This document shows positions 4,353 through 22,204 of a stretch of 64,000 nucleotides of DNA, piece after piece (the first letter of the stretch is position 1; each line of letters begins with the position of its first letter). Under the pieces are notes generated by a model. That model did no database searches. It was not told where the DNA came from and saw only the letters and a program-made list of their open reading frames with translations. The position numbers and the translations under genes were made by a program. This DNA is from a virus: the IMG/VR virus record IMGVR_UViG_3300027566_000006, positions 34,340 through 98,339 of that record. The stretch is one strand, 5' to 3'.

Positions 4353-4395
4353 TTGTTTGCCCCTTCCCTGTTATTGATCCAAATACCTATTTGGT

Positions 4396-4590: not shown

Positions 4591-4626
4591 TTATCACTCC
4601 TTTAATTTATTATATCTTATAATATA

Positions 4627-4655
4627 ATTATAAGTCTATATGTTGCTATTGTCAA
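4627..4655 (-). promoter_or_regulatory. sigmaA promoter
   Basis: perfect TTGACA-17-TATAAT. Confidence 0.85.
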
Positions 4656-4671
4656 CATGATTTTTATACTT

Positions 4672-5544
4672 TTATTTTAATATGTATTTAAAAATATGTG
4701 CTATAACATCAACAGTCCAGCCATTACCAAGCATTTTATATCTTTGTGTATTGCTTACCCCTTCAGTATAATTATCAGGTAATGTTTGAAGTCTTTCACA
4801 TTCTACAGGTGTTGCCATTCTTAAATCCTTTGCTAAAATTACACTTCTTTTTCCGTCTGCTCCTTTAAAATAATTAGCATCTAAACATAAAAATTTACTA
4901 TTATTAAGATCATCAATAATACAATCTTTATATCCTAATCCTTTTTCTTTTGCTCTTATGTTTATTTTAACTAATCTTTCTACTGCTATGTCGGTAAGAT
5001 AATATTTATTTTCAATTTCTAAATCATCTTGTAATATATCAACAACATATATATTTTTATTTTCTGGTTGAATAATATTAGGTATGTTAGTCCAATATAA
5101 TCTTTCCCTATTTAAAGCTGATACTAATGATGAATTGATTGATATTGGTTGCACTCCTAATTCTTTTGAAATTATATCTCTATCTATCTTCTTCATACTT
5201 GCTACATTTTCAAAAAGAAAATATTTTGGTTTGACACTTTTCAATGCTTCGATATATTTCCAAAACAGACCACTTTTACTTCCATTAATACCCTGCCTGT
5301 CTTTTTTAGCAATACTTAAATCTTGACAAGGGCTACCTCCTATAAGTAGATCAATATTATCAAATTGCTTCAAATTAATGTTGTTTATATCTCCTAATTG
5401 TATAGTGCCAGGATAGTTCTTTTGAGTAATCTGTATAGCATACTTATCAATTTCACTAGCATAATATGTATCCACTTTAATTCCTGCTCTTTCGAGAGCA
5501 ATCTGGCCGCAACTCATACCATCGAATAAACTTAAAACATTCAA
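4672..5544 (-). CDS. DNA (cytosine-5) methyltransferase, orphan
   Basis: Motifs I (SLFDG), IV (GGSPCQ), VI (FENV), IX/X (ERLQTLP, LGNGW). Confidence 0.92.
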   Translation of the reverse strand: MNVLSLFDGMSCGQIALERAGIKVDTYYASEIDKYAIQITQKNYPGTIQLGDINNINLKQFDNIDLLIGGSPCQDLSIAKKDRQGINGSKSGLFWKYIEALKSVKPKYFLFENVASMKKIDRDIISKELGVQPISINSSLVSALNRERLYWTNIPNIIQPENKNIYVVDILQDDLEIENKYYLTDIAVERLVKINIRAKEKGLGYKDCIIDDLNNSKFLCLDANYFKGADGKRSVILAKDLRMATPVECERLQTLPDNYTEGVSNTQRYKMLGNGWTVDVIAHIFKYILK

Positions 5545-5647
5545 TTAAATATTTTACCCTCCTTATATTTATATTATATAACTATTAAATATTTATAAAT
5601 ACTTTCAATAAGCCTCACATCCTTTAATATTTATCTTTAAACGCAAA

Positions 5648-5708
5648 AAAGCGGTATTGGTTTTATTAATCTAAATGTTATCAGACTAAATCCACCAATA
5701 CCGCTTTA
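5648..5708. terminator. intergenic stem-loop/terminator
   Basis: AAAGCGGTATTGGT...ACCAATACCGCTTT inverted repeat. Confidence 0.6.
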
Positions 5709-5754
5709 AGTCTAATATATTCAATTTTATTTTAAACTTATATTACATTCTTGT

Positions 5755-5946
5755 TTATACTTGCCTTTTATCGTATTCTGCTTTAGTAATTTCTACATAA
5801 GTCATTAACTCATCTTTCTCTAAGGTAAATTCATCTAAACCTATTTCATTGACCATGATGATTTTATTACCTTCTTCTTTGCCTCTATACACCCATCCGA
5901 ATTCACATGAATCTTTGTTGATATCCATAAAATATTTATAAGGCAT
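5755..5946 (-). CDS. hypothetical protein
   Basis: ORF with AAGGAG RBS. Confidence 0.6.
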   Translation of the reverse strand: MPYKYFMDINKDSCEFGWVYRGKEEGNKIIMVNEIGLDEFTLEKDELMTYVEITKAEYDKRQV

Positions 5947-6035
5947 GATTCAACACTCCTTTTTATTTATTCTAAAGGCATATTATTAAAATGTCAACCA
6001 TATTTATTTTTACCCTTTAATATCATATTTTTAAC

Positions 6036-6170
6036 TTAGTTACATTCTTTACAAAAATAACATTCTTCGTTATCATGAATTTCAATAGTATAATCTTTAT
6101 TTAAAATTAAATTATTTAAATCAATTTTTCTTCCACATTGGCTGCATTCAACATAAAAACTATCTAACAT
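6036..6170 (-). CDS. small Zn-ribbon protein (not in ORF track)
   Basis: MLDSFYVECSQCGRK...CYFCKECN with AGGAG RBS. Confidence 0.55.
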   Translation of the reverse strand: MLDSFYVECSQCGRKIDLNNLILNKDYTIEIHDNEECYFCKECN

Positions 6171-6256
6171 TTTAAATCTCCTTCAATCTCCTTTATACTC
6201 TATTATACTATGTTTTTCCAAACTCAAAATCGTTACAAAATGCCTGATTTATTTTG

Positions 6257-6589
6257 TTATGCTTTTAGTAATTCAATAATATAGTCTACTGCTCCGCTAA
6301 AATCATCATATCTGAAATATTTAGAACTACTCCAAAATTTATCCGAATATTGAAAAGCACTTGATTCATGTTTCACACTACTATAAACAACAATTTCATC
6401 ACTGTTTCTATTCTCACTAAAAGCAATTGTTTGAATTTTTGCTTCATCGTTATAATTGCAAACTCTATACCCTTGCTCTCTGCAATTTTCAAACATTTCA
6501 AAACTGGACTTAATATTTTGTGTGCGGGTATCCTCCATTAGCATATTTTTAATCTTTTCAGCATATTCAATCTTTCCTAATTCTAACAT
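6257..6589 (-). CDS. hypothetical protein
   Basis: ORF with RBS. Confidence 0.65.
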   Translation of the reverse strand: MLELGKIEYAEKIKNMLMEDTRTQNIKSSFEMFENCREQGYRVCNYNDEAKIQTIAFSENRNSDEIVVYSSVKHESSAFQYSDKFWSSSKYFRYDDFSGAVDYIIELLKA

Positions 6590-6627
6590 TTCAAATCCCT
6601 TCCTTTCATCCTTATAAAATATTAGTT

Positions 6628-6903
6628 TTATCCAATGTCCATTAATTCTGCCGTAATATTTAATGTTTTTCCGTTTATATCATACTGTGTAAACACTGTC
6701 CCGCCATCTGCAACATATCCTAATTCGTCTTCTCCTCTTAGAATTATGTTTAGGAATGTGTTATCCTCAACACCTTTTAAAAACTCTTTCAGTTCTCCAA
6801 CTGTTGTAATATTAACATTACATTCTTTGTATAATTCTTTCCGGTCTGCCTTTTTAGTTGTTTTTCTTTCCTCTTTAAATTCTTCTATTGAATATGGTAA
6901 CAT
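6628..6903 (-). CDS. hypothetical protein
   Basis: ORF with RBS. Confidence 0.65.
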   Translation of the reverse strand: MLPYSIEEFKEERKTTKKADRKELYKECNVNITTVGELKEFLKGVEDNTFLNIILRGEDELGYVADGGTVFTQYDINGKTLNITAELMDIG

Positions 6904-6958
6904 TTCAATACACTTCCTTTCAATTCGTTATAGAATCTGAATTTCAAACAAATATTTA

Positions 6959-7252
6959 TTATGCTGTCAATACTGGCATTTCTGTGATTTTAACTTTTAA
7001 GGTGTATTTATCAAAATCATGTGTCCCGCAAATTACTTTAAATAACTTTGTAGTTACCGTCACATCCTCTGAATACTTAACTGTTTTTTCTTCTAAATAT
7101 TTTACTTTTATTTCTTCTGCTTTTTTAGACCACTTGTTCATTAAAGTTTCTACAATGGCCTTTTTTAATTTTTGATTAGATGGAATTTTATTGTAGACTA
7201 AAATTGTTGAGTATTTAAATTCTAACTCCACATATTGAATGGTTCTACTCAT
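6959..7252 (-). CDS. hypothetical protein
   Basis: ORF with RBS. Confidence 0.65.
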   Translation of the reverse strand: MSRTIQYVELEFKYSTILVYNKIPSNQKLKKAIVETLMNKWSKKAEEIKVKYLEEKTVKYSEDVTVTTKLFKVICGTHDFDKYTLKVKITEMPVLTA

Positions 7253-7302
7253 TTTCTACCCTTCCTTTCTTGATAAAAAAGTTATTTGGTTTTGATGTAT
7301 TA

Positions 7303-7332
7303 ATTATACCATACTCACAACATGATATGCAA
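7303..7332 (-). promoter_or_regulatory. sigmaA promoter (extended -10)
   Basis: TTGCAT-18-TATAAT with TG. Confidence 0.6.
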
Positions 7333-7358
7333 GCACATTCTTTATTTTATTCTTTTGT

Positions 7359-7541
7359 TTACGCTACCCTCTTGAGGTAACTTTGTCTCGCTGTTATATG
7401 CCTATTCATTCTTGTTTTCTTTATCTCTAGAGCGTTTTTCATTGATAAGTAATTAACCATAAAGCAACTAAATACAATTAGTATCCATCCGGCTGCAAAG
7501 TATTTAATGACTAGGGAAGAGACTGTTATTATATCATTCAT
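7359..7541 (-). CDS. small membrane protein
   Basis: single hydrophobic helix, GGAGG RBS. Confidence 0.6.
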   Translation of the reverse strand: MNDIITVSSLVIKYFAAGWILIVFSCFMVNYLSMKNALEIKKTRMNRHITARQSYLKRVA

Positions 7542-7631
7542 TGTTATACCTCCTTTAGTTTATTTTTTATATTATAGTTATAAGGTTTTTGAATTAAGCA
7601 GAACCTTTTAAACTGCTGTTATTGTTTTAGT

Positions 7632-9200
7632 TTACATTGCCGAACTATTTATATTTAACCTGTTCATCTCTTTTAATATCCTTTTAAATGCTTCTTGATA
7701 ATCTGTATCGCATGCTTTAGTACCCCATGCCATTTTACCAGTTATGTGATTCTTAATTATTGTTATTGCCTGTTCAAAGGTTTTATACTCGGCTGATTCT
7801 TTAATCATTGGGAATTTATAACCTTGTTGTAATACTTCTTTTAATGCCTTACCTGTTATAATAGTTTCCCAATTTCCCATATTGATAAAACGCTGATCAT
7901 CATCAAAATGCGGTCTGTTATAGAAGTTAGAGATAGTATATATTTTATTCTCAATTATATTATGGTTTTCTATTGCTGTTACTTTACGGTTACATTTATA
8001 AATAATTGTCGGTTCTGTATCATTTCCAGTATATACTTCATCCTCCCAAAACAATTCTGATCCTGTTAATAGTTCGGAGATTTTATGATATTTCTTGCTG
8101 TTATTATCCATTTTTAAGTAAGTTACTGTATATAGAGTATTTTCTTCAACATCTTCTGGAGTGATATTTTTAACTTCTGCCAACATACTGTTATTGTAAT
8201 TTTCAAGTTCTTCTGCTTCTTTTCTTCTTCTCTGTTCTCCTTTTTTTATATTGCAGTTCTCATCAAAGTATAATGTATTGCTGTCAAAACTATGGCAATT
8301 AAAGCTTAACGGTGTTATACCTTCTTTTGTTTCTCCTGCTGATACCCACCAACCTGAAGAACTTTCGATTATTCTTTCTGCTAAATGTATTAAATCAAGT
8401 GATGAGCCTCTTCCATAATTACATGCTGCATCATAAGCATAATCATCTGAATAATACCCGTCTTTTACTCCTTTGAATATTTGACCTGATAAAATAGCTT
8501 TCCAAACATGAGCAATAGTCCATTTTTTTGGTGTTTTAATTGGTTTGATTTCAACGAATGGAGAAAAGGTATTAATTCCTTTTTGTGAACCTTTGTCTAT
8601 CTCTAAAGTTTCAATATTCAATGAATCGGTTATTATTGCGTTATGAAATGCTTTTACGGTTTCAATTTCGCCGATGTTCCACAATTCTGTTAATACAGAT
8701 TTATGGTCATCCCATACATTTTTACGGATTGAATAACGATTACATTCTTTACCAATTTTTAATGCATTGGTAAGGTCGATTAATACTGCACTATCAGCAT
8801 AAAAATGAATATATGCGTTAATATCTGCAAAGTAGCCGGAAACTCTGCTATTCAATTCTATATCGCTTGATTTAAAGATTTCTGTACTACCTACAGTATT
8901 GTAAGAGGGAAAATAAGATTGTTCTGGTTTGGTTGTTGTGGTCTGGTTGCTATTATCTGTTATTACTAATTCTTGATCCTGGTTAATTTCTCCGCTTAAT
9001 TCTTGAGCCAATTTTAAAGTTTTTTCTGATTGTTTGGCATACCACAATTCTTTTTTCCATGAGAATCTAAATCCTGCATCTTTTAGAATGTTTTTAATGG
9101 TGTTATTTGGTTTCTCATCTTTAGGCCAATATAATTCCACTCCGTTTAATTCCTCATTGATTGCCATTTTAATACTGTTATTGTCTGACATTGCCAACAC
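7632..9200 (-). CDS. large polyvalent-type early protein
   Basis: N-terminal GVELY..KP...LK.AGFR...WYAK motif of the kind seen in phage/plasmid polyvalent proteins; likely ATG start at 9191. Confidence 0.5.
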   Translation of the reverse strand: MLAMSDNNSIKMAINEELNGVELYWPKDEKPNNTIKNILKDAGFRFSWKKELWYAKQSEKTLKLAQELSGEINQDQELVITDNSNQTTTTKPEQSYFPSYNTVGSTEIFKSSDIELNSRVSGYFADINAYIHFYADSAVLIDLTNALKIGKECNRYSIRKNVWDDHKSVLTELWNIGEIETVKAFHNAIITDSLNIETLEIDKGSQKGINTFSPFVEIKPIKTPKKWTIAHVWKAILSGQIFKGVKDGYYSDDYAYDAACNYGRGSSLDLIHLAERIIESSSGWWVSAGETKEGITPLSFNCHSFDSNTLYFDENCNIKKGEQRRRKEAEELENYNNSMLAEVKNITPEDVEENTLYTVTYLKMDNNSKKYHKISELLTGSELFWEDEVYTGNDTEPTIIYKCNRKVTAIENHNIIENKIYTISNFYNRPHFDDDQRFINMGNWETIITGKALKEVLQQGYKFPMIKESAEYKTFEQAITIIKNHITGKMAWGTKACDTDYQEAFKRILKEMNRLNINSSAM

Positions 9201-9271
9201 TCCTTTTATTTTTATTAATTAAACTCTTATTTTGGGATACTACTTAGAGCATCCCAACTATAAGAATTCAC

Positions 9272-9676
9272 TTAATTATTTTCGTAAAATTCTATAGTCT
9301 CAGCTATTGCAACTTGATACTCTTCAATGCTGTTATACTGATTTACCGTTATATCACCTTCGCAGTATGTGTATATATTATATGCGTTGTTATCGGCTAA
9401 TACTGCTCTATATCCGTCAACAAAGAGACAACTGGTGTTATAATGTTTATTTACTATGGATTGGAATGTGTAACAATCTCCGCATATATGGCCTCCATAA
9501 TATAGAATAGAATTATCTTCTTTAATTCTGGAATGTAAGCATATATCAATTATTTTATTACCTGTTAAGGGATAGTCTGGAATGATTTCATATTTATTAA
9601 AATTGATTCCCTTATAGTTATTATCACTTAGAATAGTTTGAAATTGTTCTGCTGTTACCTTAATTATATTTTCCAT
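9272..9676 (-). CDS. hypothetical early protein
   Basis: ORF with AAGGAG RBS. Confidence 0.65.
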   Translation of the reverse strand: MENIIKVTAEQFQTILSDNNYKGINFNKYEIIPDYPLTGNKIIDICLHSRIKEDNSILYYGGHICGDCYTFQSIVNKHYNTSCLFVDGYRAVLADNNAYNIYTYCEGDITVNQYNSIEEYQVAIAETIEFYENN

Positions 9677-9714
9677 TTTATAACACTCCTTTTTTCTTTA
9701 AACTTTATATTATA

Positions 9715-9743
9715 ATTATAATGGTTTAGTTTCATGTTGTCAA
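9715..9743 (-). promoter_or_regulatory. sigmaA promoter
   Basis: perfect TTGACA-17-TATAAT. Confidence 0.85.
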
Positions 9744-9753
9744 CATTATTTTC

Positions 9754-9924
9754 TTAGCCTGTAGGCTCAAGATTATATTTTTCACACCATGAGCAAAATA
9801 CATCAATATTAGCTTTTACTCCTTGCTGCTGTCTTACTGCTTGATATTGGTTATAATCTGCGTACCAACATCCTGCTACCTTATAAGCCTTTACCCCGTT
9901 AATGTGTCTTGTTTTCTTTTCCAT
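9754..9924 (-). CDS. small hypothetical protein (56 aa, not in track)
   Basis: MEKKTRHINGVKAYKVAGCWY..., AAGGAG RBS. Confidence 0.5.
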   Translation of the reverse strand: MEKKTRHINGVKAYKVAGCWYADYNQYQAVRQQQGVKANIDVFCSWCEKYNLEPTG

Positions 9925-10042
9925 TATTTCCAACTCCTTTTTTGTTTTTTATTTTTATTTAAGCTTAACACTTACAGAGGTTAACACTGGCTGTTATTAT
10001 ATTTTGTTTGTGTTATGTGTTAACCTTTAAAATGTTAATTCG

Positions 10043-10222
10043 TTATTTGGTTACATACCATGCCACAAATTTATTTTCTGTTCCATCTTGACTACTCCAA
10101 GGCGTATAATGTGCCTTATGATTTTTTCTAATATAGGTATTTAGATTTTCATTATTGCAAAATATTTTTGCTTGTTCTTCAGTATCAAAAAACTTAAATG
10201 TTGACTTATATCTGATGCTCAT
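10043..10222 (-). CDS. small hypothetical protein (59 aa, not in track)
   Basis: MSIRYKSTFKFFDTEEQAK..., AAGGAG upstream. Confidence 0.5.
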   Translation of the reverse strand: MSIRYKSTFKFFDTEEQAKIFCNNENLNTYIRKNHKAHYTPWSSQDGTENKFVAWYVTK

Positions 10223-10258
10223 AATATAAACATACTCCTTTTTATTTTTTGTTCTGTA

Positions 10259-10489
10259 CTAATTTGTTTTAATGGCAGGAATATTATATAAAACAATTTT
10301 CCCACTATCATTATATATATTATTGCAAACGCTCATTTTAAAATATTTTTTACCTTTTTTGATTCCTTCTATTACAAAGGATAATCCTTTTTCCTCCGCT
10401 TCTTTTAGTTCTAATTCCTCGAAAGATGTATTGTTGCTCCATCCATCTTTTATGAATTTATTTGTTATTTGTTCCACTGTTTTAAACAT
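10259..10489 (-). CDS. hypothetical protein (start revised to MFKTV)
   Basis: GGAGG RBS precedes ATG at 10489. Confidence 0.55.
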   Translation of the reverse strand: MFKTVEQITNKFIKDGWSNNTSFEELELKEAEEKGLSFVIEGIKKGKKYFKMSVCNNIYNDSGKIVLYNIPAIKTN

Positions 10490-10545
10490 TATTGTTATAC
10501 CTCCTTCCATTTTTTCACTTTGAATCAAATTTGCTATTGGTTTTG

Positions 10546-10824
10546 TTATTTGCATATTTCGCATATGCAATGTTGTGATCCACCTGTAAATATTCCTTTG
10601 TATACATCTGATTCAAGAATAAGACTCTTATAATTTCTTCTTGAATCTCCTGTATACATTACTTTAATTATGCCAGAAACATAATTCCGTAAAGTATACC
10701 CAGTAGCAAGGATTTTATTATCATCCATGCATCTAATTTGATATTTAAAGAAGTTTACCTTCTCACATACCAAATTTTGATTACCTAAGTATTTTTCGAG
10801 TTCTCCTGCTTTTAAAGTTTTCAT
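10546..10824 (-). CDS. hypothetical protein (start revised to MKTLK)
   Basis: GGAG RBS precedes the internal ATG. Confidence 0.5.
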   Translation of the reverse strand: MKTLKAGELEKYLGNQNLVCEKVNFFKYQIRCMDDNKILATGYTLRNYVSGIIKVMYTGDSRRNYKSLILESDVYKGIFTGGSQHCICEICK

Positions 10825-11125
10825 TCCTATCCACTCCATTCTGTTATTATTTTTATTTCCTTTTAATACCCTCAATTATGCCCAAATTGGGCATACTGGA
10901 AGGTACTGCTGTTATACTAAATAAATTTTAATTCCTAAATATATTTGTGAATCAATTCTAATTTTCTCAATTTCCCGTTCCTTGTATTCTTTTGGTATTT
11001 TGTGCCGTAAAATGTAATTGCAGACCATCAACATGCAATTCTATATTTTCTTTACCATCAAGAGTTTTTAATAAGTCATCAAATTTCATTCTGCTCCACT
11101 CCTTTTTTAATTCTGTTATTACCTA

Positions 11126-11155
11126 ATTCTAACAGATTTACTTTCATGTTGTCAA
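11126..11155 (-). promoter_or_regulatory. sigmaA promoter
   Basis: TTGACA-18-TAGAAT; shares TTGACAACATGAAA with the 9743 promoter. Confidence 0.65.
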
Positions 11156-11240
11156 TAGTATTTTATGCTTACAATTATATCTTTATTCTGTTATTTAGTG
11201 ATAAAATCAATCTTTCATCACAAGTATAGTTTAACTGCTG

Positions 11241-11534
11241 TTATACCGCTTGAGGGTAAAGTTTGCAGTATTCATCAAACAATTTCTCTGTTTCCCTTTT
11301 TGCATCTTTTAGCAGTTTAAACCTTCCAATAATATCTTGAGATTCTTTTTCCGTATTTTCTACTATGCCATAATAAAAAGGTCTTTTGATTGAATCGTGA
11401 CTGTATTCTTTTTCCATTTCTTGATATACAACTACTCTAATGGTTTCTAATGTATTGCAGGGATCACGGGCTTCAAAAGTATAACGGGGAGAATCGTCTA
11501 ACCAGTCATAACCTTTTGTCCATTTTTTAGTCAT
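11241..11534 (-). CDS. hypothetical protein
   Basis: ORF with AAGGAG RBS. Confidence 0.65.
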   Translation of the reverse strand: MTKKWTKGYDWLDDSPRYTFEARDPCNTLETIRVVVYQEMEKEYSHDSIKRPFYYGIVENTEKESQDIIGRFKLLKDAKRETEKLFDEYCKLYPQAV

Positions 11535-11569
11535 ATGATTTTCACTCCTTAATTATTTTATTAATCTGG

Positions 11570-11926
11570 TTATTGCTGATATGCACAAATAACCTTGTCA
11601 CCTAAATCAATGGCAAATCCTTTTTTACTCGGTAAAGGTTTGATCATATCAATAAATTTAGACTTTGTGTTATACTCAATTCCTGCTGCATCGATAAAAT
11701 TATCATTGAAATAATCCCAGGTTTTATAATTCTTATTGATAGTCTGCTCTAAGTAACATACTAGAGCTTTGTTGGCTGGTAAAGTGTATAGCGCATGGTC
11801 TGTTATAGTTCCCTGCTCGTCAATAGACTTGATAATTGATTTTTGGTTGTTCATTATGTTTCCTTCTTTCTTAATAATTATTTTTAGTTTGTTATACTGC
11901 GTATGAATATCTTCTACCTTCTTCAT
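11570..11926 (-). CDS. hypothetical protein
   Basis: ORF; true start probably MNNQK at 11854. Confidence 0.55.
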   Translation of the reverse strand: MKKVEDIHTQYNKLKIIIKKEGNIMNNQKSIIKSIDEQGTITDHALYTLPANKALVCYLEQTINKNYKTWDYFNDNFIDAAGIEYNTKSKFIDMIKPLPSKKGFAIDLGDKVICAYQQ

Positions 11927-12149
11927 CTATTAGATAAATATATTTGACTGAAGTTATTTTGTATTCTGCTCCTTTTGTTTTATGCCATTCAAATGTTCGG
12001 TCAACATGAATTATATATTCATTGTTATAAATTAGCATGTATTCAAATGTATCATACTCAGTTTTTTCTATTTCTAATAATTTCTCAAGGTCTTTTATTT
12101 TGATTTTTCCTTTTATTGATTCGGGCATAGATTTTTTATTGATATACAT
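11892..12149 (-). CDS. hypothetical protein
   Basis: ORF with GGAGG RBS. Confidence 0.6.
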   Translation of the reverse strand: MYINKKSMPESIKGKIKIKDLEKLLEIEKTEYDTFEYMLIYNNEYIIHVDRTFEWHKTKGAEYKITSVKYIYLIDEEGRRYSYAV

Positions 12150-12274
12150 TATGTTTTTACCTCCTTCCCTTATTACTATTCTGTTATTATTAATTCCTCT
12201 ATAGAATATTAAAATCTGTTATATCTTATTTATAGTTTGATTTTAACACTCTAACAAAAATTAATTGCTTGCTG

Positions 12275-12601
12275 TTATTGTGCGCTTGATCCGCTAACAT
12301 GAGCATAATTAGTTAAAAACCATTCTGTATATTTTTCAGCTTTAAACCATTTCGCTAGTTTATAATAACTTAATTCTCCTATTCCTGGTATTGGTTGCGG
12401 TTTTATTAATGCTTTTTTAGGTATCCAGCAAGTATATTTTGATAATTCCATGCTTTTAGATTCCATGTTATAACCTTGTAATTGTATAGCCTTATCTGTT
12501 ATTGCCGTTATACGTCCATGAAACATTCTACTAAATATTGCCGTCTCTGCTATTGCTCCACCTAAAGAAATGCTGATTTCTTGATATTCTCTAAAATCCA
12601 T
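12275..12601 (-). CDS. hypothetical protein
   Basis: ORF with GAGGA RBS. Confidence 0.6.
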   Translation of the reverse strand: MDFREYQEISISLGGAIAETAIFSRMFHGRITAITDKAIQLQGYNMESKSMELSKYTCWIPKKALIKPQPIPGIGELSYYKLAKWFKAEKYTEWFLTNYAHVSGSSAQ

Positions 12602-12606
12602 TATTG

Positions 12607-12861
12607 TTATTCCTCCTCTATAAATTCAACTATGTGCAAACCTTTATTCCAATTGTATTTACATATTTGACCACTAAAAATGTTATTGTCTGCATCAAGA
12701 AATAAGGTAATGTTATTAACATCTTTTTTCATTCCTTCCCGATATGGTTTGATATATGTTCTACAGATTAAGTGGGGAATGGTTCCTGCTACATTGTATA
12801 GGTCTGCAAACTGTCCACCTGGAGTAAATACGCTAGTTCTGATTTCTTCAATATTTACCAT
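12607..12861 (-). CDS. hypothetical protein
   Basis: ORF with AGGAGG RBS. Confidence 0.65.
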   Translation of the reverse strand: MVNIEEIRTSVFTPGGQFADLYNVAGTIPHLICRTYIKPYREGMKKDVNNITLFLDADNNIFSGQICKYNWNKGLHIVEFIEEE

Positions 12862-12958
12862 ATTTATCCTCCTTTATATTTTTGTTTTACTACTAATAAG
12901 CCTTGACAAGTGGTGCTAATTGTTATTTGTTATTAGTACCACTTAATAAGAATTATTG

Positions 12959-13195
12959 TTATTGATTTTTAGATGATATCCGACTGATATAGTTTTGAAA
13001 ATCCAGTATTGATATTTTAGTCATTGGCTGAGATGATATTTTATTTTTAGCTTTATATACCTTTAAATTTGTTTCTCTGGTGTCAAACTTGTATTCGCCT
13101 ATATGATACATTCCCCACCTATCAATGGTAGCTCCTGCTTGCTCTAGGATGGTATTAAGATCATTAATATGTTTTAACCTTTGGATTTTTGTCAA
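12959..13195 (-). CDS. hypothetical protein
   Basis: TTG start with GGGAG RBS. Confidence 0.55.
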   Translation of the reverse strand: MTKIQRLKHINDLNTILEQAGATIDRWGMYHIGEYKFDTRETNLKVYKAKNKISSQPMTKISILDFQNYISRISSKNQ

Positions 13196-13228
13196 TGTTA
13201 TCGACTCCCTTTATTTATTTTATGCCTC

Positions 13229-13258
13229 ATTATATCATACTGGTAATATGATTGTAAA
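13229..13258 (-). promoter_or_regulatory. sigmaA promoter (extended -10)
   Basis: TTTACA-18-TATAAT with TG. Confidence 0.65.
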
Positions 13259-13312
13259 GAGTGGATATTTATTTTTATTAAATGATATACTGCTCGTGAT
13301 AGGATAAGTCTG

Positions 13313-13495
13313 TTATATCATTTCTATTTTAATATCATTATGTTTTTCTTTATCTTTCATTACATCAACTATAAAGTGCATATTTGGAGTAATAGTTTCA
13401 TATTTTGTAGCATCTTCTATGTCGTCTACCATTTTGGGGAACACTTCTCGAACAATAAATTTTAAGTATTGATTTTCACATTTAATCACATACAT
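13313..13495 (-). CDS. hypothetical protein
   Basis: AGGAGG RBS. Confidence 0.6.
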   Translation of the reverse strand: MYVIKCENQYLKFIVREVFPKMVDDIEDATKYETITPNMHFIVDVMKDKEKHNDIKIEMI

Positions 13496-13545
13496 ATAAT
13501 AACCTCCTTTTCACTTGATTCCAAACGGTTATTTTATGCTGAGTG

Positions 13546-13842
13546 CTAATTTATTTTTACAAATTTTAATATACTTGATTCAACCCAAGTTTTCAATTCT
13601 TTATCTGTTATAGTCTTTTCCCAAATAAAACTTTTAAAATCTGTACTATAACAATGTAATTGACAACGGCCTATGATCCATAGATTATCTTGTAATACTT
13701 CATATATTCCATTATAGCAATCAAATTGATTTTGAATAATTACATGATTTATTTTTATATTGTCTTTTTCAGTTACCAAAATATATTTTACATTATTTTT
13801 ACCACAAAAGTCTGGTAGTATATCATTGTTATTGTTATTCAT
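13546..13842 (-). CDS. hypothetical protein
   Basis: GGAGG RBS. Confidence 0.6.
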   Translation of the reverse strand: MNNNNNDILPDFCGKNNVKYILVTEKDNIKINHVIIQNQFDCYNGIYEVLQDNLWIIGRCQLHCYSTDFKSFIWEKTITDKELKTWVESSILKFVKIN

Positions 13843-13873
13843 TTTTATTCCTCCAATTCATTTTTTTAATCTG

Positions 13874-14218
13874 TTATAGATTTACCGCTATAGTTCCGCT
13901 TTTAATCCAGCAATCACAATTAGCAATGACTGTTATTATTGTTATGGTATTATTTGTAATATTGCAAACTATCGAAAAATTGTTTGGTTTATCTTGTATA
14001 AAAATATCTCTGTTGCTACCAGCATAGGCTGTTATTGTTTTTTCTCCTAGACTGAGTATTGATCCTGTTACTTGGTAAAGATCAATTTGTCGTTGCTGTA
14101 GTCTGAGTTCTGCATGGTTTGTTAAGCGGATAGAATAGGTATTATTATTAATAGTGAATGTATTAATGGAAGTTCCCGCCTTTCTTTTGTGGTTGTGGTT
14201 GGTTGTGGTGTTATACAT
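13874..14218 (-). CDS. DUF4258/BECR-like small protein
   Basis: IRLTNHAELRLQQRQI and C-terminal ITIITVI pattern resemble RelE-like BECR RNase folds. Confidence 0.4.
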   Translation of the reverse strand: MYNTTTNHNHKRKAGTSINTFTINNNTYSIRLTNHAELRLQQRQIDLYQVTGSILSLGEKTITAYAGSNRDIFIQDKPNNFSIVCNITNNTITIITVIANCDCWIKSGTIAVNL

Positions 14219-14522
14219 TTATTATACTCCTTTCTTTTGTTATTTGTAATTGTATTCGGTTTATAATCTTTGACAATGGGTATTATATTTATTTTGATTC
14301 TATAATACCTATTAATAAGGATTATATTGTGATAGTGTTATGCAGGTCTTACAATTAGTTCATTATTCTTAATTTCTACTACTTGGAGCTTGCAAGTAGT
14401 GTTTTTTAATTTAAAGGTATCATTCACTTTATAATCCTTTTTAACCTTGCCTATTAGATTTAGACAACCGGGTGATCTAAAATATACTTTTTTCATTTTG
14501 TTGTGCTCCTTCCATTAGTCTG

Positions 14523-14729
14523 TTATATCATTCCAAGATATTCGCAGTATTCGCCACCATGATTATTATATAGTTTAGTTTGTTTCATTAGTGTATAGTC
14601 TTCTAATATGCTACATTGTACTAATAGTGTTAATTCTTTTAATGTTGCGTGTACTTGTATTCTCTTTGTGGCCATTTTAGATTTTAGGTTTCTGGCTTGG
14701 TTTGTTATTGTCTTTTGGTCTTTTGTCAT
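14523..14729 (-). CDS. hypothetical protein
   Basis: ORF with RBS. Confidence 0.5.
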   Translation of the reverse strand: MTKDQKTITNQARNLKSKMATKRIQVHATLKELTLLVQCSILEDYTLMKQTKLYNNHGGEYCEYLGMI

Positions 14730-14844
14730 TTTGTTATTTCCTTCTTTCTTTTTATTATTGTTCTGTTATTGTGTTTTAAATATTCTCTATAGAGCTAATT
14801 TTATTTTATACTTCTAATTAGCTCTAACAAAATATTATTTGGTG

Positions 14845-15219
14845 TTATGCTGCCGTTATGGTTTGTTCTGTTATTGTTTGTTCAGCTAATTGAATTAATT
14901 CTTTTAGGCTAAATCTATTACTTTCTTTTAGTTCGGTTTCTTTGTGTTCTTTTGTTATGCTCCATATGTTGCCATCATTGTTCTTAGTGGCTGAATAGGT
15001 TTCCGTAAAATATTTACCAATTCCATTACAATACTTAAAATAATAAAACCTAGTGTATTGTTTTTCCGTTTCCGTCTCGTTTGTTAATTTGATTAATGAA
15101 GGGTATTCATGATCATGCGATGGATTATAGATATAATTTGCTAGATCAATTTTAAAATTATTTGCGGTTTGGATTTGAGATAGTTTTTTAAGGTTTTCCT
15201 TTTTGAGATTTCTTGCCAT
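14845..15219 (-). CDS. hypothetical protein
   Basis: ORF with RBS. Confidence 0.65.
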   Translation of the reverse strand: MARNLKKENLKKLSQIQTANNFKIDLANYIYNPSHDHEYPSLIKLTNETETEKQYTRFYYFKYCNGIGKYFTETYSATKNNDGNIWSITKEHKETELKESNRFSLKELIQLAEQTITEQTITAA

Positions 15220-15317
15220 TTTAATTCCTTCTTCCTTTTATTTGTTATTTTGTGTATCTGTTATATCCTCTATAAAGCATATACTTAACTGTTATAGGTA
15301 TATGCTTTAACAAGATA

Positions 15318-15680
15318 TTAAGATATGAAATGTAATTCCCCATTAACTTCTAAACTTATTGCATCTTGATTAGCCATTGTTAGTAATTGTTCGCCTATTT
15401 CAATAGCTGACTCAATTGCAATTTCTAGGTTATTTGTGTAGCTGAATACTACGGTAATTTTTTCTTTTATCAATTCCCCTGATGCTGATTTCCAGTAACC
15501 TAGTGCGGATGTAGAAGTAGCTCCCCCATTAACCTGGGAGAACGTAGAAGCTGTTAAGTCAACCATTTTATTAATTAGTTCCTGTGATAATTCAATATTG
15601 TTTTTGTCTTTTGTCGGAACGTATAAAGAGATTTTATGGGATAATTTGAATAGGTTTTTCAAGGTTTTTTTGTTTTCCAT
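15318..15680 (-). CDS. conserved small phage protein (GGAT...G.W...E motif, DUF3574-like)
   Basis: NGGATST.ALGYWKS..GELIKEK; start revised to the ATG behind GAAGGA. Confidence 0.5.
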   Translation of the reverse strand: MENKKTLKNLFKLSHKISLYVPTKDKNNIELSQELINKMVDLTASTFSQVNGGATSTSALGYWKSASGELIKEKITVVFSYTNNLEIAIESAIEIGEQLLTMANQDAISLEVNGELHFIS

Positions 15681-15750
15681 TAGTGTTATTCCTTCTTTCA
15701 TTTTTTGTTATTTTAGCATCAAATCTCGGTTTTATACTGAGTGATATTAA

Positions 15751-15921
15751 TTATTCTTCGTTTATTACTACTCGTTCTATTATATTACTAATTACATTTT
15801 GCAATCCAAAAAGTTCTTTTAATGTTAGGGTTCCTTCCTCTTCAACTAATTTTTCTAATATGCTTTGATTTCTTAATATTTCGCTAGCTCTTTCTAGTGT
15901 TATATGTTGTTTATTTGCCAT
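15751..15921 (-). CDS. hypothetical protein, first ORF of early operon
   Basis: AAAGGAG RBS before ATG (MANKQ). Confidence 0.6.
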   Translation of the reverse strand: MANKQHITLERASEILRNQSILEKLVEEEGTLTLKELFGLQNVISNIIERVVINEE

Positions 15922-15944
15922 TTTGATATCTCCTTTCATTTTAT

Positions 15945-16265
15945 TTTAGACTTCTAAAAACCTTCAAGCAAGATAATGTTTGTTGGTTGTTATCTTGATT
16001 CAAGATTCTCTATTCTCGGTTACTGCACTCTGTTCATATCTTTCAATTTATCTCTACTATACTTGTGCCGGGTCAATGCCTCCAGCTATACGGCTTAGTA
16101 GGTTAGAGTGCTATATTAGTATTTATATCCTCCACGATTCAATAAATACTTTTTGTATTAGAGCTTGCATGAGGTAAAGGTAACTCGAATCTGAATCGGC
16201 TGGCCTTTAGGTCTAAGCGGTCTAGGCTGTCGGCCTGTTGTTCGTGTGTCTGTATCTCTTATCTG
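15945..16265 (-). ncRNA. putative structured leader RNA
   Basis: GC-richer, ORF-free on the sense strand, at least 6 complementary segment pairs, directly after a consensus promoter. Confidence 0.55.
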
Positions 16266-16270
16266 AATTC

Positions 16271-16299
16271 AGTATATCAGGTTGGGAATATGAAGTCAA
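16271..16299 (-). promoter_or_regulatory. sigmaA promoter of early operon
   Basis: TTGACT-17-TATACT with TG extension and AT-rich UP element. Confidence 0.8.
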
Positions 16300-16555
16300 T
16301 AGTTTTTTTGAATATTTTTATATTTTTATTTTGATGATTGATTGAGAATAGGTTGGTATTAGATTGATAATATAATGGTGGTTGCAGCATGATTTGATTG
16401 TATAGGTGGTTATATGGCTCAAGGTTGGACGGTAGTATGTTTTATGATGTTTTGTATTCAGTTGGTTGGTTTATGGTGGTTGTTGGGGAGTATGAGAGGA
16501 GGTAATTTAATAGAAGATAAAAAATTGAACATTTACACGGTATAATAAGAGAATT

Positions 16556-16622
16556 AAAAAAGTTGTCCGTCAAAACCTATATAGAAATAAATCTATTATA
16601 TAGTATTCGACAGACAACTTTT
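16556..16622. repeat. long imperfect inverted repeat
   Basis: AAAGTTGTCcGTCaAA..CTATATA / TATATAG..TTcGACaGACAACTTT. Confidence 0.7.
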
Positions 16623-16639
16623 ATTTTATATTCATAATA

Positions 16640-17677
16640 TTATAGTTTAATCAATAATTCCGCTAACTCTTGTTGAGCATATAAATATACATCATTCAAT
16701 CGGAAAAATTTACTCAATGACATTTCGGACGGTTTGCCGATAATATGATTCATATATTCTTCTACTTGCTGATCATATTGTTCCTGACTTTTATCATATT
16801 TCTTTTGTGCTTGCTCATTTACCGCAAGAACTATCTTATCATTTAACATTCTCTTTTGTATTAATAATTCTGCTTGCTGCAAGGCATCATCTATATATTT
16901 TTTGGTGAATGATATCTTAATATCTTTATAGGTATAATTTATATTATGCCTTTCTTTTAATAATTGGTTGACTCTAGAATAAAATTCTTTTTGCTTAAAT
17001 TTGAGATGCATTATAGTAATGCTTTCAAGATTCATATTAATTAATGTTTCCTTTTCAATATCTCTTATAATATCCTTTTCTTCTTCTGTGGCCTCACGTT
17101 CTATTGTTGCATTGGTTGTATTTACTTCTCTTATATTAATCATTGTCAATTCTTCATAGTCTATTAACCGTCTATTCTTTAAGTTATTTAAAGTGCTGAA
17201 TATTATTTCCCTTAGTTTTTGGTAAGTTCTTTGGTAAAAATGATTAATATGGTAATCGGTAATAAAATCAGAGTCAGCTTTTATATTTTCCTTATCCTCT
17301 TGTATATAGTTAATATTGATCATACCTAATAATAAGAATAACTTTTTAAGTGTAATTCTTGTTTGTTTTCCATCTTGTCTGGATAGATGATTCAATAATA
17401 ATAATTCAATGTGTTTGATATAAATAGAGTTATTACCATATAAATAATTATCATCTTTGGGTAATGGAGTGCTATGTATTTTAGTGATTATATATTTTTG
17501 TTTATCCTTTTCATAATCAAAATATCTGAGCCATTCTTTTACTTGATAGATTTTTGCATTCCCGGTCTTTGGTTCTTCGGATAATAGAGTGCATAAAGTC
17601 TTATAATTCTTTATTGTTTGGCCTATTGTTAGGTTGGTTTGGATAAGGTTGTATAATGGGTCTTGTTGTGGTGTCAT
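16640..17677 (-). CDS. hypothetical DNA-binding (wHTH-like) phage protein
   Basis: 345 aa, AAGGAG RBS, own promoter TTGCAA-17-TACAAT (17725-17753). Confidence 0.55.
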   Translation of the reverse strand: MTPQQDPLYNLIQTNLTIGQTIKNYKTLCTLLSEEPKTGNAKIYQVKEWLRYFDYEKDKQKYIITKIHSTPLPKDDNYLYGNNSIYIKHIELLLLNHLSRQDGKQTRITLKKLFLLLGMININYIQEDKENIKADSDFITDYHINHFYQRTYQKLREIIFSTLNNLKNRRLIDYEELTMINIREVNTTNATIEREATEEEKDIIRDIEKETLINMNLESITIMHLKFKQKEFYSRVNQLLKERHNINYTYKDIKISFTKKYIDDALQQAELLIQKRMLNDKIVLAVNEQAQKKYDKSQEQYDQQVEEYMNHIIGKPSEMSLSKFFRLNDVYLYAQQELAELLIKL

Positions 17678-18434
17678 GGTTTATTAGTCTCCTTTATTAT
17701 TTATTTGTTTACATAGTTATTATTATTGTATCATGTATGGTATTGGTTTGCAAGTATATTTATATTGTGGTTTTGTTAGAGTAAGACCAGACACAATGTT
17801 ACTCATATTGTATTATTATTTTGTATATATGACGCATATATAGTTTAATGTGCTATACTAATTAAATTATTATATGGTAATATGAGTATTATTTGTTTAG
17901 ATGTGAGGCATATATGGTGTAATATAGGATTAAATAGGTTTAATATGATGTAATGTGATGTTTAATTGTGTGATATTGTGGTTATTATGTATCATATATG
18001 ATGATTAATTAGTTTAATGTGTGTCATATTTAAGTTAATGTGATATACTATTTGTATGTCTTCCATAGTTGATTCCCTGTTATCATCCCCGAAAATTTGT
18101 CAAGTAATTTCCCTTGGCAGACTCCAACCGATAGCAATGAACAGTATCAAAACACATCAAGACCAGCCAAACTGATCCTATTAGTATAGTTTGCTCTATT
18201 CGGCTTATTTCTATCCATATTTCATGCTATCGGCAGCAAATATCAGTACAAAATACCTCTTTCATAGCGTCCATAATCAAATATAGAGGTACAACACATA
18301 TTCTGTAGTATTATTTCATGGTCTATAAATCCCATTATATCGGTATTCTTAGCACTTTAAGTAAGATTAACAGATTATCAATATAATTGACTAGGTATGC
18401 CCGCCCTACTTTACAAACTTTAGGGTAAAATTAT

Positions 18435-18448
18435 CGAACACATGTTCT
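18435..18448. promoter_or_regulatory. Gram-positive LexA (Cheo) box
   Basis: CGAACACATGTTCT fits GAAC-N4-GTTC. Confidence 0.55.
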
Positions 18449-18754
18449 ACATCTCTTCCCTATCGACATCGCGGTTCATTCCGATTCCGAGTAACAACGG
18501 TAAATATAAAATTCTAATAAATTTAATTCAAAATACATTCACTATGTAATCGTAAAACATACCAAAAATATTATAGTTTTAACCCTAAACACCACAGGGG
18601 TATATTAATAAATTTCAATAGATTTTTAATAATAACACCATACTAACTAACCCTCAATCCCTTATAAATCTACTTCTAACCTATTTACTTAATAAAAAAT
18701 AGTAGTTAATATACGAACCCATACATTAACTACTATCGAATATACTATATATCT

Positions 18755-20488
18755 TTATTTTATTAGTTTAATCTTTTCATAAAATCCTTTCCAATCGCCT
18801 TTTATATCATTTGGATACAAATATATCATCTCTCCATAAGGTAGTGTACGATATTTTTCCATCTTATTTTTCATCTTATCAATATAATATTTAATTCTAG
18901 TATTATATTGTTGCTGTTCTAAAGCAATTCCAAAATACTCAACAATATAAATATTATTATCAGTAAGTATAATCCAATCTGGGTTCATATTTTTTACAGT
19001 AATTTCATTTTCGCTGTTTCTATTATTATAAATAACCGTTTGAAATTCTTTTCTTAACATTTCATCTATAATACTTTCTTCCACTGAATCAAATTTATTC
19101 CTAATAATACCGATATCAAAATCCTGTTCAATAAACTTATCTGGATATAATCTATTAATCCATTCAAATAAAGAGTTGTCAAATCTTTTTTTATAAAGAA
19201 TATTATATAAGGTATCAGATTGCTTTCTTATGCCGTACTTAGTGATATATAAAGGTATTTTCTCAATTGGTAGTTGCATATCTTTTTCAATTAAATACCG
19301 CATAGCTTGATCTACATTATCTCTACTTTGCCAGTATTTTTGTCCTGTTATTGATTTGAACTTATAAGCTCCGTACTCATTATTAAAATATTTCATAATA
19401 AATCCTAATTTATCTTTTTCAACATTAATCACATACCAATAAGCCTTAGATTCTTTAAGCAAAGTATTATAATCATATGTATATACATCGTCTATATTTA
19501 TATTATTATTTTGTAGATACATATTAATAAGTTCTACTGCATCTTCAAACGTTATTTTTTGAATTATCTTTTTATTTTTTTCTCCTAAATTACTTTTTAG
19601 TATTTCTTTATTTTTCAATTTTTTATAAAAGTATTTGTCTACTGATTTCATACTTATGTATTCAATAGGTATTTTTGTTATTTCACTTAAAAACTCTTGA
19701 TTACATTTGTCTAAATTCTCTAATATTATTTCTTTATAAAATTTATTAAGTATGTTAACAACATTCAAACTATTATGTAATATGGACGGATAATAAATAA
19801 TCTTACCTTTTAAATACAATTCATATGTTTCATATATATTTTTGTTTTTATATTTATATATATTATATAGATCCTCCCCACCTTCGTAATAAGCTTTTGT
19901 AAATTCTTTATTGTTAATATATTCAATATGTAATTGTTCGCAATTATTACATGTAGTTCTTAAAGGTTTCTTATTATTTTTATTTACTTCTTTAACCCAA
20001 AAGTTTTTATGATAGGGATAATATTTATTACACTTATTACACCTTTGCCATATAATTTCTCCTTCAAATTCTTTTATAAATGCATTAATACATTCTTTAG
20101 ACCAGAAGTCATGTTGCTCTATTTCTTCTTCAGTTATACAATCTTTAAATTTCTCATTAAAGTTTATATCCACTTCTAAGTGTAAATAATCACATGCCTC
20201 TTTCATAGCTTTCCTTTGTTCAACAGATAACCTACCAATCTTGCTATTTCCTAATACAACCTTTAAACCATCTTTAGATATACAATATGTATTTTGTAGC
20301 CCACCAGTATTTTCTCCATAATCAATTTGAAATTCTTTTATGTATTCTCCATATCCATTCTGTTTTAATTGTGACGGTGATAAATTCTTTAATAATACTT
20401 TACTACCTATATAACTTAATGGATACCATACACCTCCTTCCTCCATTATCGGAACATTTGTTCTATTAATTACTATTTCCTTCTGCAA
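18755..20488 (-). CDS. multidomain protein: antirepressor-like N-term, Zn finger, C-terminal PD-(D/E)xK-like endonuclease
   Basis: CNKC/CNNC; FDSVEE...NPDWIIL...IVEYFG; TTG start at 20488 behind AGGAGGT; promoter TTGACA-17-TATAAT at 20537-20565. Confidence 0.55.
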   Translation of the reverse strand: MQKEIVINRTNVPIMEEGGVWYPLSYIGSKVLLKNLSPSQLKQNGYGEYIKEFQIDYGENTGGLQNTYCISKDGLKVVLGNSKIGRLSVEQRKAMKEACDYLHLEVDINFNEKFKDCITEEEIEQHDFWSKECINAFIKEFEGEIIWQRCNKCNKYYPYHKNFWVKEVNKNNKKPLRTTCNNCEQLHIEYINNKEFTKAYYEGGEDLYNIYKYKNKNIYETYELYLKGKIIYYPSILHNSLNVVNILNKFYKEIILENLDKCNQEFLSEITKIPIEYISMKSVDKYFYKKLKNKEILKSNLGEKNKKIIQKITFEDAVELINMYLQNNNINIDDVYTYDYNTLLKESKAYWYVINVEKDKLGFIMKYFNNEYGAYKFKSITGQKYWQSRDNVDQAMRYLIEKDMQLPIEKIPLYITKYGIRKQSDTLYNILYKKRFDNSLFEWINRLYPDKFIEQDFDIGIIRNKFDSVEESIIDEMLRKEFQTVIYNNRNSENEITVKNMNPDWIILTDNNIYIVEYFGIALEQQQYNTRIKYYIDKMKNKMEKYRTLPYGEMIYLYPNDIKGDWKGFYEKIKLIK

Positions 20489-21283: not shown

Positions 21284-22204
21284 ATGACCCAATCAGTAGC
21301 TATAGATAACGGATTTCATACAACAAAAATTTACCAACAATCCCCTATCCCTAAATCTTATTCTTTTCGCTCTAAATTTCAATCTACCACCTCCCCACTC
21401 ACTTATCCTAATACTCATTCAATCACTTATAAAAATAATAATTATCTTATAGGAGATCATGCAGAAGAGATTGATATTAATCTGAATAAAAATAATTCTC
21501 TTTTACACTATCTCACAACTCTCACTGGCTTAGGTTTATTATCATCCACACTAACACAACACATACAATATAATCTTGTTGCAAATATCCCTATTAATCT
21601 TTATAACCAATCTAACAAGGAAGCATTTGAAAATTATCTACGTTCCACTACTCCTATCACTTATTCATTAAATAATAAACCCATATCCATCTCAATCCCA
21701 AATGTAGTGGTATTTCCTCAAGCACTATCGTGTATTTATGTCAACCACATTAAATCAAACCTTATAGGTATTCTTGATTGTGGAGGAATCACGATCCAAG
21801 GGTGTATATGTGAAAACAAAAATCTTATCCATTCAACCGTGTTCACTGAAAATCAAGGAATATTAATTTTATTAAATAAAATAAAGAAAGCACTCAATGC
21901 TCAATACAACATCAATATCAATGATTATGAACTAGAATCAATCCTCAAAAATGGTTTATTACAAGATAAAGAAAAATCTCTACAAATAATATCCTCTATA
22001 TGCACTTCTCATATTGAACAAATAATTAAAATAATGAAGTTATCAGGCTGGAATCTTGAAAACACTGAAATCCTTTGTGTAGGAGGTGGTTCTTTATTAT
22101 TAGAGCAATATCTATTAAAATTATTACCTAAATACCGTATATCCAATAATCCAGCTATGGATAATGTTCTTGGTTTGTGGGAGGTAGCTAAGAATGTATT
22201 CTAA
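21284..22204 (+). CDS. parM: ParM/StbA-family actin-like ATPase
   Basis: IDNGFHTTK, VFPQ, LDCGG.T, VGGGS, NVLG actin-fold motifs. Confidence 0.85.
   Translation: MTQSVAIDNGFHTTKIYQQSPIPKSYSFRSKFQSTTSPLTYPNTHSITYKNNNYLIGDHAEEIDINLNKNNSLLHYLTTLTGLGLLSSTLTQHIQYNLVANIPINLYNQSNKEAFENYLRSTTPITYSLNNKPISISIPNVVVFPQALSCIYVNHIKSNLIGILDCGGITIQGCICENKNLIHSTVFTENQGILILLNKIKKALNAQYNININDYELESILKNGLLQDKEKSLQIISSICTSHIEQIIKIMKLSGWNLENTEILCVGGGSLLLEQYLLKLLPKYRISNNPAMDNVLGLWEVAKNVF

Follow-up and report, generated by a model that had tools for sequence, protein, structure and literature searches.

The roughly 325 nt of minus strand that separate a promoter from the first ribosome-binding site (RBS) of a small-gene array form the noncoding 5′ leader of the first transcription unit in that array, as established from the sequence. 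The leader is a real and probably functional noncoding element. Our preferred reading, to which we assign a probability of about 0.45, is that it is a promoter-proximal attenuation or antitermination leader. As proposed, it would be transcribed from a strong extended −10 promoter, and a hairpin at its 3′ end would serve as an intrinsic terminator or attenuator at which most transcripts would end unless an alternative fold were adopted. In the alternative fold, a segment further upstream, referred to below as block B, would capture the lower 5′ arm of the 3′ hairpin and thereby block the terminator; this pairing would enclose two inner hairpin domains and produce a multibranched structure. The invariant first 50 nt, with a GC-rich box, would be where the choice between the two folds is made, by a factor of the phage or of the host or by the polymerase. 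In this way the leader would gate the entry of RNA polymerase into the genes from 15921 to the next internal promoters.

[quoted passage not shown] If the leader gates the approximately 35 small genes downstream, whose products probably serve host takeover or anti-defence, it would act as the switch of the earliest programme of the phage, and it would also provide a compact regulatory part for low-GC hosts. At present it is a two-member candidate, a lead and not a result.

The analysed window is a 64-kb stretch of DNA that forms part of a 98-kb IMG/VR virus record, the completeness of which was estimated by CheckV as ~56%. Terminase and portal genes are present in the record, and the only function named by the gene scan is a partition protein (21284–22204). 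Coordinates refer to the window unless a locus is named, and the features of the leader and its flanks are collected in Table 1.

Table 1. Features of the leader and flanking sequences, with nucleotide identity to the homologous locus L020
Feature	Coordinates	Strand	Identity with L020	Description
345-aa gene	17677–16640	−		Same strand as the leader, upstream of it
Promoter	16271–16299	−	72% over 36 columns, much of the spacer included	Sigma-A/sigma-70-type, extended −10; A-rich tract upstream
Motif copy 1	16254–16266	−		TCAGATNNGAGNT; straddles the presumed transcription start
First ~50 nt of transcript	16216–16265	−	86%	
Small hairpin in GC box	16224–16236	−		4-bp stem, 5-nt loop
Motif copy 2 (block B)	16182–16194	−		Candidate anti-terminator strand
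Leader middle			34% over 240 columns	
9-bp hairpin	16118–16150	−		Perfect stem, z = −3.39
Inner domain	16025–16111	−		87 nt, closed by a 7-bp helix, z = −1.89
3′ hairpin	15956–16010	−		Arms 16007–15990 and 15976–15959, two internal mismatches
End of the alignment			63% over the last 75 columns	
First small ORF region	15919–15955	−		Conserved A-rich spacer, RBS 15936–15930, start codon 15921–15919

Extent, composition and relatives of the leader

The promoter comprises a −35 box (16299–16294), a 17-nt spacer ending in TG (16279–16278) and a −10 box (16276–16271), and it scores 10 of 12 plus the TG extension. We infer that it is strong and that transcription starts near A16264. From about +28 to +50 the transcript contains a 23-nt segment (16216–16238) with 61% GC, further referred to as the GC box, which is invariant between the window and its relative L020 and occurs once in the window. 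The hairpin within it does not vary between the two copies and is therefore uninformative about covariation. Pairing over a long range between the GC box and the inner domain was set aside as marginal (p ~0.06 in each sequence). A 13-nt motif, TCAGATNNGAGNT, has exactly two matches in the 64 kb, both within the leader and 72 nt apart; L020 has both copies, the second one with a one-base insertion.

No ORF of at least 30 aa is present on the RNA (minus) strand between the promoter and the RBS, and, apart from the identical 5′ block, a six-frame comparison of the window with L020 gave no sign of conserved coding sequence. On these grounds, the idea of a conserved upstream or antisense ORF was rejected. 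The first small ORF has its likely start at 15921 and runs to 15751.

The initial annotation had described this stretch as GC-richer than its surroundings, and it is in fact the GC-richest part of the window: its GC content is 38.9%, whereas the window as a whole has 28.1%; as high a value is found in just 0.25% of 320-nt windows, and the window-wide maximum is 39.4%. In L020, GC equals 0.449 in the leader, 0.292 in the flanking gene and 0.221 in the spacer. The enrichment holds for the unalignable middle as well (0.388 in the window and 0.458 in L020). In an AT-rich genome, a noncoding stretch that stays GC-rich despite sequence drift is what is expected of a structured RNA. We consider the GC-richness kept across the diverged middle to be the best single argument for selection on the RNA itself; the noncoding and GC-enriched character of both homologues also speaks for an attenuation leader. 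The notion of a noncoding GC-enriched leader is thus borne out, with one relative of the same layout. The initial annotation had also recognised no known riboswitch here, and none was found: with Rfam 15 the sole match in the whole window at the gathering score is one tRNA, and a search of 15600–16700 with E-values up to 10 gave nothing inside the leader.

For the search for relatives, 45 loci containing genes of the 345-aa family were fetched, plus two from species genomes. A homologue of the leader was found by nhmmer in one locus only, L020 (E = 7e-12), a 2,072-nt metagenome contig whose 345-aa family protein is 63% identical to that of the window; a fuzzy GC-box search of the same 45 loci likewise gave L020 alone. 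There was no leader match in phage and plasmid collections searched by blastn. In IMG/VR, exact matching of a 19-mer, a 16-mer and a 15-mer gave either nothing or chance matches in unrelated, mostly GC-rich contigs, and an exact 22-mer was absent from 185,579 species genomes. Whole-record searches of five related viral records yielded only matches of 14–18 nt with E-values of 0.06–0.56, which were taken as chance. In the window's own record the leader is single-copy.

The alignment with L020 is conserved at its ends, whereas the middle is effectively unalignable (Table 1). The GC box, the duplicated motif and the 3′ hairpin are the firmest of the features kept in both copies. A conserved promoter, 5′ end and 3′ end set against a drifted middle, next to a gene with 63% protein identity, speak for an attenuation leader. 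In the other loci the region 3′ of the gene is a mosaic, always with a G-poor tract first, followed by other promoters and shorter or different leaders. L019 (2329–3120) and L020 (1377–1700) are 98% identical over the first 118 nt after the gene and have the A-rich tract and the −35 box in common; then they diverge inside the promoter spacer. The point of divergence appears to mark a recombination junction at which the long leader was exchanged for a short one, and since it lies inside the spacer, the leader behaves like an independent module. L019 has a short leader, which was also considered and dropped, as it has no comparable structure.

The ORF following the leader in L020 (2000–2072) starts with a hydrophobic peptide and is unrelated to the first ORF of the window; therefore the leader module has been kept while the downstream gene differs. 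The same circumstance would suit a stand-alone small RNA of ~310 nt with its own terminator, acting in trans as a decoy, antisense or immunity RNA, with the downstream genes expressed by leakage only. The strong promoter, the terminator-like 3′ end and the GC-rich noncoding content would all agree with such an RNA. However, a conserved spacer and RBS lie within 20 nt of the hairpin without a promoter of their own, and no Rfam family of phage regulatory RNAs is matched, which makes this explanation very unlikely in our view.

Predicted secondary structure and possible alternative folds

The 3′ hairpin is the firmest of the predicted structural elements of the leader, and it had been missed, together with its U tract, by the initial annotation. 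It contains 18 or more pairs, a C/A-rich loop of 13 nt and a U5 tract at 15960–15956, and it is located ~20–25 nt ahead of the first RBS. Its free energy is −15.0 kcal/mol in the window (z = −3.27) and −13.8 kcal/mol in L020 (z = −2.72). In the RNAalifold consensus of the two sequences all its pairs are kept in L020, three of them being changed on both sides. The hairpin is followed by U5 in the window and by U6 in L020, and then by the conserved A-rich spacer and the RBS; on the transcribed strand it thus has the form of an intrinsic terminator, a stable stem-loop with a run of U directly behind it. The advantage over shuffled sequences in both copies, the compensatory changes and the U5/U6 tracts thus argue for an attenuation leader. 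Against it count the AU-rich stem and the large loop (13–18 nt) of the hairpin, which was not called by a strict terminator scan, and its strength as a terminator is uncertain.

The whole stretch folds with −64.6 kcal/mol (z = −2.33), 1 of 100 shuffles being as good. Seven complementary pairs, mostly nested, had been listed in the initial annotation and read as a multibranched RNA. All seven are present at exactly those positions, and with the outer helix forced and the inner helices kept, the fold of the window is only 0.7 kcal/mol above the MFE at full length and 1.0 kcal/mol above it when the sequence is truncated before the 3′ arm. However, the outer helix uses bases of the lower stem of the 3′ hairpin, and because of this the multibranched fold and the full 3′ hairpin are mutually exclusive.

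The outer helix is the pairing of block B with the 5′ arm of the 3′ hairpin and spans ~180 nt. When all upstream 22-nt windows were scanned as partners of this arm, the block B region ranked first in both sequences (position 69, −13.0 kcal/mol in the window; position 67, −11.5 kcal/mol in L020). Measured against shuffled versions of block B, the pairing reaches p = 0.004 for the window and p = 0.10 for L020. Motif copy 1 pairs weakly with the arm (−6.9 and −5.1 kcal/mol). That block B is the best partner of the arm in both sequences suggests alternative terminator and anti-terminator folds. The ranking, the low p-value in the window and the small energy difference of 0.7–1.0 kcal/mol there support an attenuation leader, whereas the L020 p-value speaks against it, as does the outer-helix fold of L020, which is 10–12 kcal/mol worse than the MFE. 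Long-range pairings of the L020 MFE structure were dropped, as they are not reproducible in the window, and so was a second long-range helix in the window (+50 to +67 with the U tract), absent from the L020 sequence.

A processive-antitermination RNA of the put/EAR type, a protein decoy and an independent ncRNA had all been offered initially as possible roles. Since the leader ends in a conserved terminator-like hairpin that competes with the outer helix, attenuation or antitermination is to be placed above a decoy; a put/EAR-like RNA is less favoured.

When the leader is folded by domain, only the 3′ hairpin and the hairpin at 16118–16150 clearly beat shuffled sequences. In L020, the equivalent of the latter is an unrelated 6-bp hairpin. 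The inner domain holds a small conserved hairpin with a GAAA loop (16038–16047); its L020 counterpart is 116 nt long and closed by a different 7-bp helix (z = −1.10). In the gap-free register three of the seven pairs of the inner closing helix differ on both sides, while MAFFT prefers another register, and compensatory changes in this helix are suggestive only. The 5′ third is no better than shuffles (z = −1.2 in the window and −0.66 in L020). The absence of a clear gain over shuffles in the 5′ third and the inner domain counts against an attenuation leader, and so does the comparison of two sequences only, which hence provides no statistical covariation.

The weak z-scores of the 5′ third and the inner domain would also fit a plain long 5′ UTR that has no particular function and in which hairpins arise by chance. 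The known copies number just two, and a stretch of 320 nt should contain many short complementary pairs by chance alone. Nevertheless, we find this highly improbable given the GC enrichment common to both homologues, the invariant GC box inside a diverged region, the compensatory changes in the 3′ hairpin and the exact motif duplication restricted to the leader.

The downstream array and the upstream gene

The leader heads a 10-kb minus-strand array of small ORFs with no function assigned by the scan. The next promoter-like sites downstream are at ~14276 and ~13258. The hairpin and the RBS are separated by 25 nt, too few to accommodate a promoter, and the genes from 15921 to ~14276 or ~13258 would therefore need read-through; this lack of promoter space is a further point for an attenuation leader. 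A relaxed scan of 15960–5650 gave three weak hairpin-plus-U sites (−7.8 to −10.0 kcal/mol) and none stronger than −10 kcal/mol, and at least the site at 8805 lies within a gene. The only strong minus-strand terminator-like site found downstream is a hairpin at ~5650–5705 (−26.9 kcal/mol, followed by U6), which is the probable end of transcription of the array.

Intergenic hairpins are present in the array at 12175–12280, 12880–12970, 14250–14340, 14765–14850 and 15250–15330 (minus strand). They are AU-rich, contain 20–25 bp with internal loops and large loops and, unlike the 3′ hairpin, none has a U tract; they may be processing sites. The missing U tract in these other long hairpins of the array is counted in favour of an attenuation leader.

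The ATAACAG heptamer occurs 38 times in the window compared with 13.5 expected. Of these copies, 33 are on the minus strand at 4111–15295, downstream of the leader, and none is inside it. The initial annotation had suggested that the leader may form one early-expression system with the TAACAG motifs and hairpins. The link to the motifs is positional only.

An alternative would be processive antitermination by an RNA like conAn2, put of HK022 or EAR, in which the nascent leader binds polymerase, alone or with a small protein, and polymerase then reads through the 3′ terminator of the leader and later signals over the ~10-kb array. The layout resembles that of conAn2 (PMC8191782), with the GC box at +28 to +50 and a middle part that is unalignable between the homologues. 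On the other hand, with only weak hairpin-plus-U sites between 15960 and 5650, processivity is not obviously needed. Further, the conAn protein gene precedes its RNA, whereas in the window a strong terminator separates the upstream gene from the leader. Neither ConAn1 (PF17362) nor a NusG paralogue nor a Q-type protein was found in the 98-kb record (~56% complete), and the leader shows no sequence similarity to Rfam antitermination RNAs. We regard processive antitermination as unlikely, and the attenuation or antitermination leader acting at its own 3′ hairpin is preferred.

Upstream, the 345-aa gene is closed by a 26-bp terminator hairpin (16558–16622), and a G-depleted tract of ~250 nt lies between this terminator and the leader promoter. 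Neither a Pfam family nor a PDB sequence match was found for the 345-aa protein. Its structural model (pLDDT 79) has a weak Foldseek likeness to the tandem winged-helix proteins MukE, ScpB and JetB, with no E-value at or below 0.001 (the best one is 0.016). The family includes at least 98 homologues from metagenomes and clostridial genomes; P0002, with 81% identity, is among the closest relatives, and others are from a Syntrophomonas wolfei genome, Caproiciproducens and Lachnospiraceae. Distant homologues were found on plasmids of Clostridium botulinum, one of 12 kb; among the 7 of its 13 features that were inspected, none was an annotated replication gene. Since relatives of the protein sit in clostridial genomes and plasmids, the phage host is probably a clostridial Firmicute. 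The protein itself is a candidate replication initiator or regulator.

The 1-kb gap upstream of this gene (17678–18760) was considered as a second structured RNA and dropped, as its conserved blocks look like DNA sites and its consensus fold is only −3.7 kcal/mol. A Firmicute LexA box of the Cheo type, GAAC-N4-GTTC (18435–18448, minus strand), is located ~750 nt upstream of the gene. It is conserved across the four related loci (the window, L027, L019 and L022), as are several further blocks of sequence, and because of this conservation the gap looks like an SOS-controlled regulatory region and not like a structured RNA.

An ORF-less tract of 220–1,100 nt follows the terminator of the 345-aa family gene; the window copy is at 16300–16520 (minus strand). 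The tract was also seen 3′ of the gene in L013, L014, L016, L019, L024, L025, L031, L032, L036 and L037, and it is G-depleted and C/A-rich in the loci inspected for this (L014, L016, L019 and L032). It contains repeats, AACCACC three times in the window and GCTACC/GTTACC-type ones in L014 and L032. The G-poor tract could consist of origin iterons or an operator array, or could be a Rho-loading site.

A regulator of the phage might also act at the level of DNA, with the motif copies and the palindromic GC box as its operators and the 3′ hairpin as an element for processing or stabilising the RNA. Motif copy 1 lies across the presumed transcription start and hence is only partly in the RNA; the two copies are 72 bp apart, that is, about seven helical turns; the GC box contains a 4+4 inverted repeat; and conservation starts at the −35 box and includes the spacer. 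The other long hairpins of the array could be RNase III-type sites, and the 345-aa protein encoded upstream has a weak resemblance to proteins of the tandem winged-helix type. However, operators leave unexplained both the GC-richness of 240 unalignable nucleotides in the two homologues and the conserved U tract after the hairpin, and the GC box is found nowhere else in the window despite several other promoters in the array. We consider action at the DNA level to be quite unlikely and retain an attenuation or antitermination leader as the preferred reading.

Comparison with known systems

By its sequence features the leader appears to be an element of a known kind, a promoter-proximal termination-control leader; no catalogued family matches it, and it is represented by two sequences so far. 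In Firmicutes, riboswitch and attenuator platforms (T-box, RAT/BglG-type, PyrR and TRAP) have a promoter-proximal terminator and an upstream segment complementary to its 5′ arm. Similarly, the leader has a putative terminator before the first gene and mutually exclusive folds. It differs from these platforms in having no match to an Rfam aptamer or binding motif (E-value up to 10) and in that its anti-terminator helix would span ~180 nt, whereas theirs is local.

The nutL/N and PR′-tR′ 6S RNA/Q leaders of lambdoid phages are untranslated RNAs of 190–220 nt with an antitermination site near the 5′ end. The leader resembles them in its strong promoter of a constitutive or early type, in being an untranslated RNA and in the large hairpin or terminator before the first gene. 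In contrast to them, it has no boxA-like sequence, as judged by reading the leader, its 4-bp stem and loop are unlike boxB, no N- or Q-like protein was found, and the probable host is a Firmicute. The product of the first ORF is not arginine-rich, and the Q-type family (PF06530) has no match in the 98-kb record; since N-like proteins have no sensitive model, this is a weak test of membership in the lambda N/Q group.

In P4 (CI RNA) and P1/P7 (c4), leaders of phage-plasmid early operons contain short repeats and their complement within the same leader, which control premature termination. The two motif copies and the complementary arm of the 3′ hairpin are reminiscent of this arrangement. Unlike P4 CI and P1 c4, the leader has no C4- or CI-type match in Rfam and no identified processing signals, and its copy 1 pairs weakly with the arm. 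The lambdoid leaders and the P4 CI and P1 c4 RNAs are treated as analogies and not as memberships.

The conAn2 element of pLS20 is an RNA of 260–600 nt that heads a long operon in mobile elements of Gram-positive bacteria (PMC8191782). An essential GC-rich box is located ~50 nt from its 5′ end, it also has stem-loops and inverted repeats on its flanks, and different conAn2 regions have a mutual identity of only 30–40% (PMC8191782). Alone, conAn2 is enough for short-range antitermination, and it is made processive by ConAn1 (PF17362), whose members diverge strongly from one another (PMC8191782). The ~325-nt leader, with its 61%-GC box at +28 to +50 and its hairpins, has a similar layout; at 30–40% identity among conAn2 members there is no sequence homology by which to compare it with them.

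There are also differences. conAn2 is preceded on its transcript by the conAn1 gene and belongs to conjugation operons, whereas the leader directly follows its promoter and heads an array of small phage genes; and, unlike conAn2, the leader ends in its own terminator-like hairpin, antitermination being putative here. The ConAn1 domain (pXO2-34) had no match at E-values up to 1 in the 98-kb record (~56% complete), and the NusG paralogue (PF02357) by which a LoaP-type system would be recognised had none in the record either. Membership in the conAn group fails on the missing PF17362 gene, the different gene order and the lack of an obvious task for processivity.

A bolder proposal, which we find rather improbable, is that the leader is the first member of a previously undescribed class of large antitermination RNAs that act in cis in clostridial phages or phage-plasmids. 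Such an RNA would be a functional counterpart of conAn2 or put that lacks their known protein partner, would load on polymerase at the GC box, and would form one early-expression system with the strand-specific ATAACAG motifs of the array and its hairpins lacking a U tract.

By function, conAn2 is the closest analogue that we found. Like it, the leader is a large noncoding RNA that heads a long co-oriented operon, with a GC-rich box near the 5′ end, hairpins and long-range inverted repeats, and in both cases sequence conservation between members is very poor.
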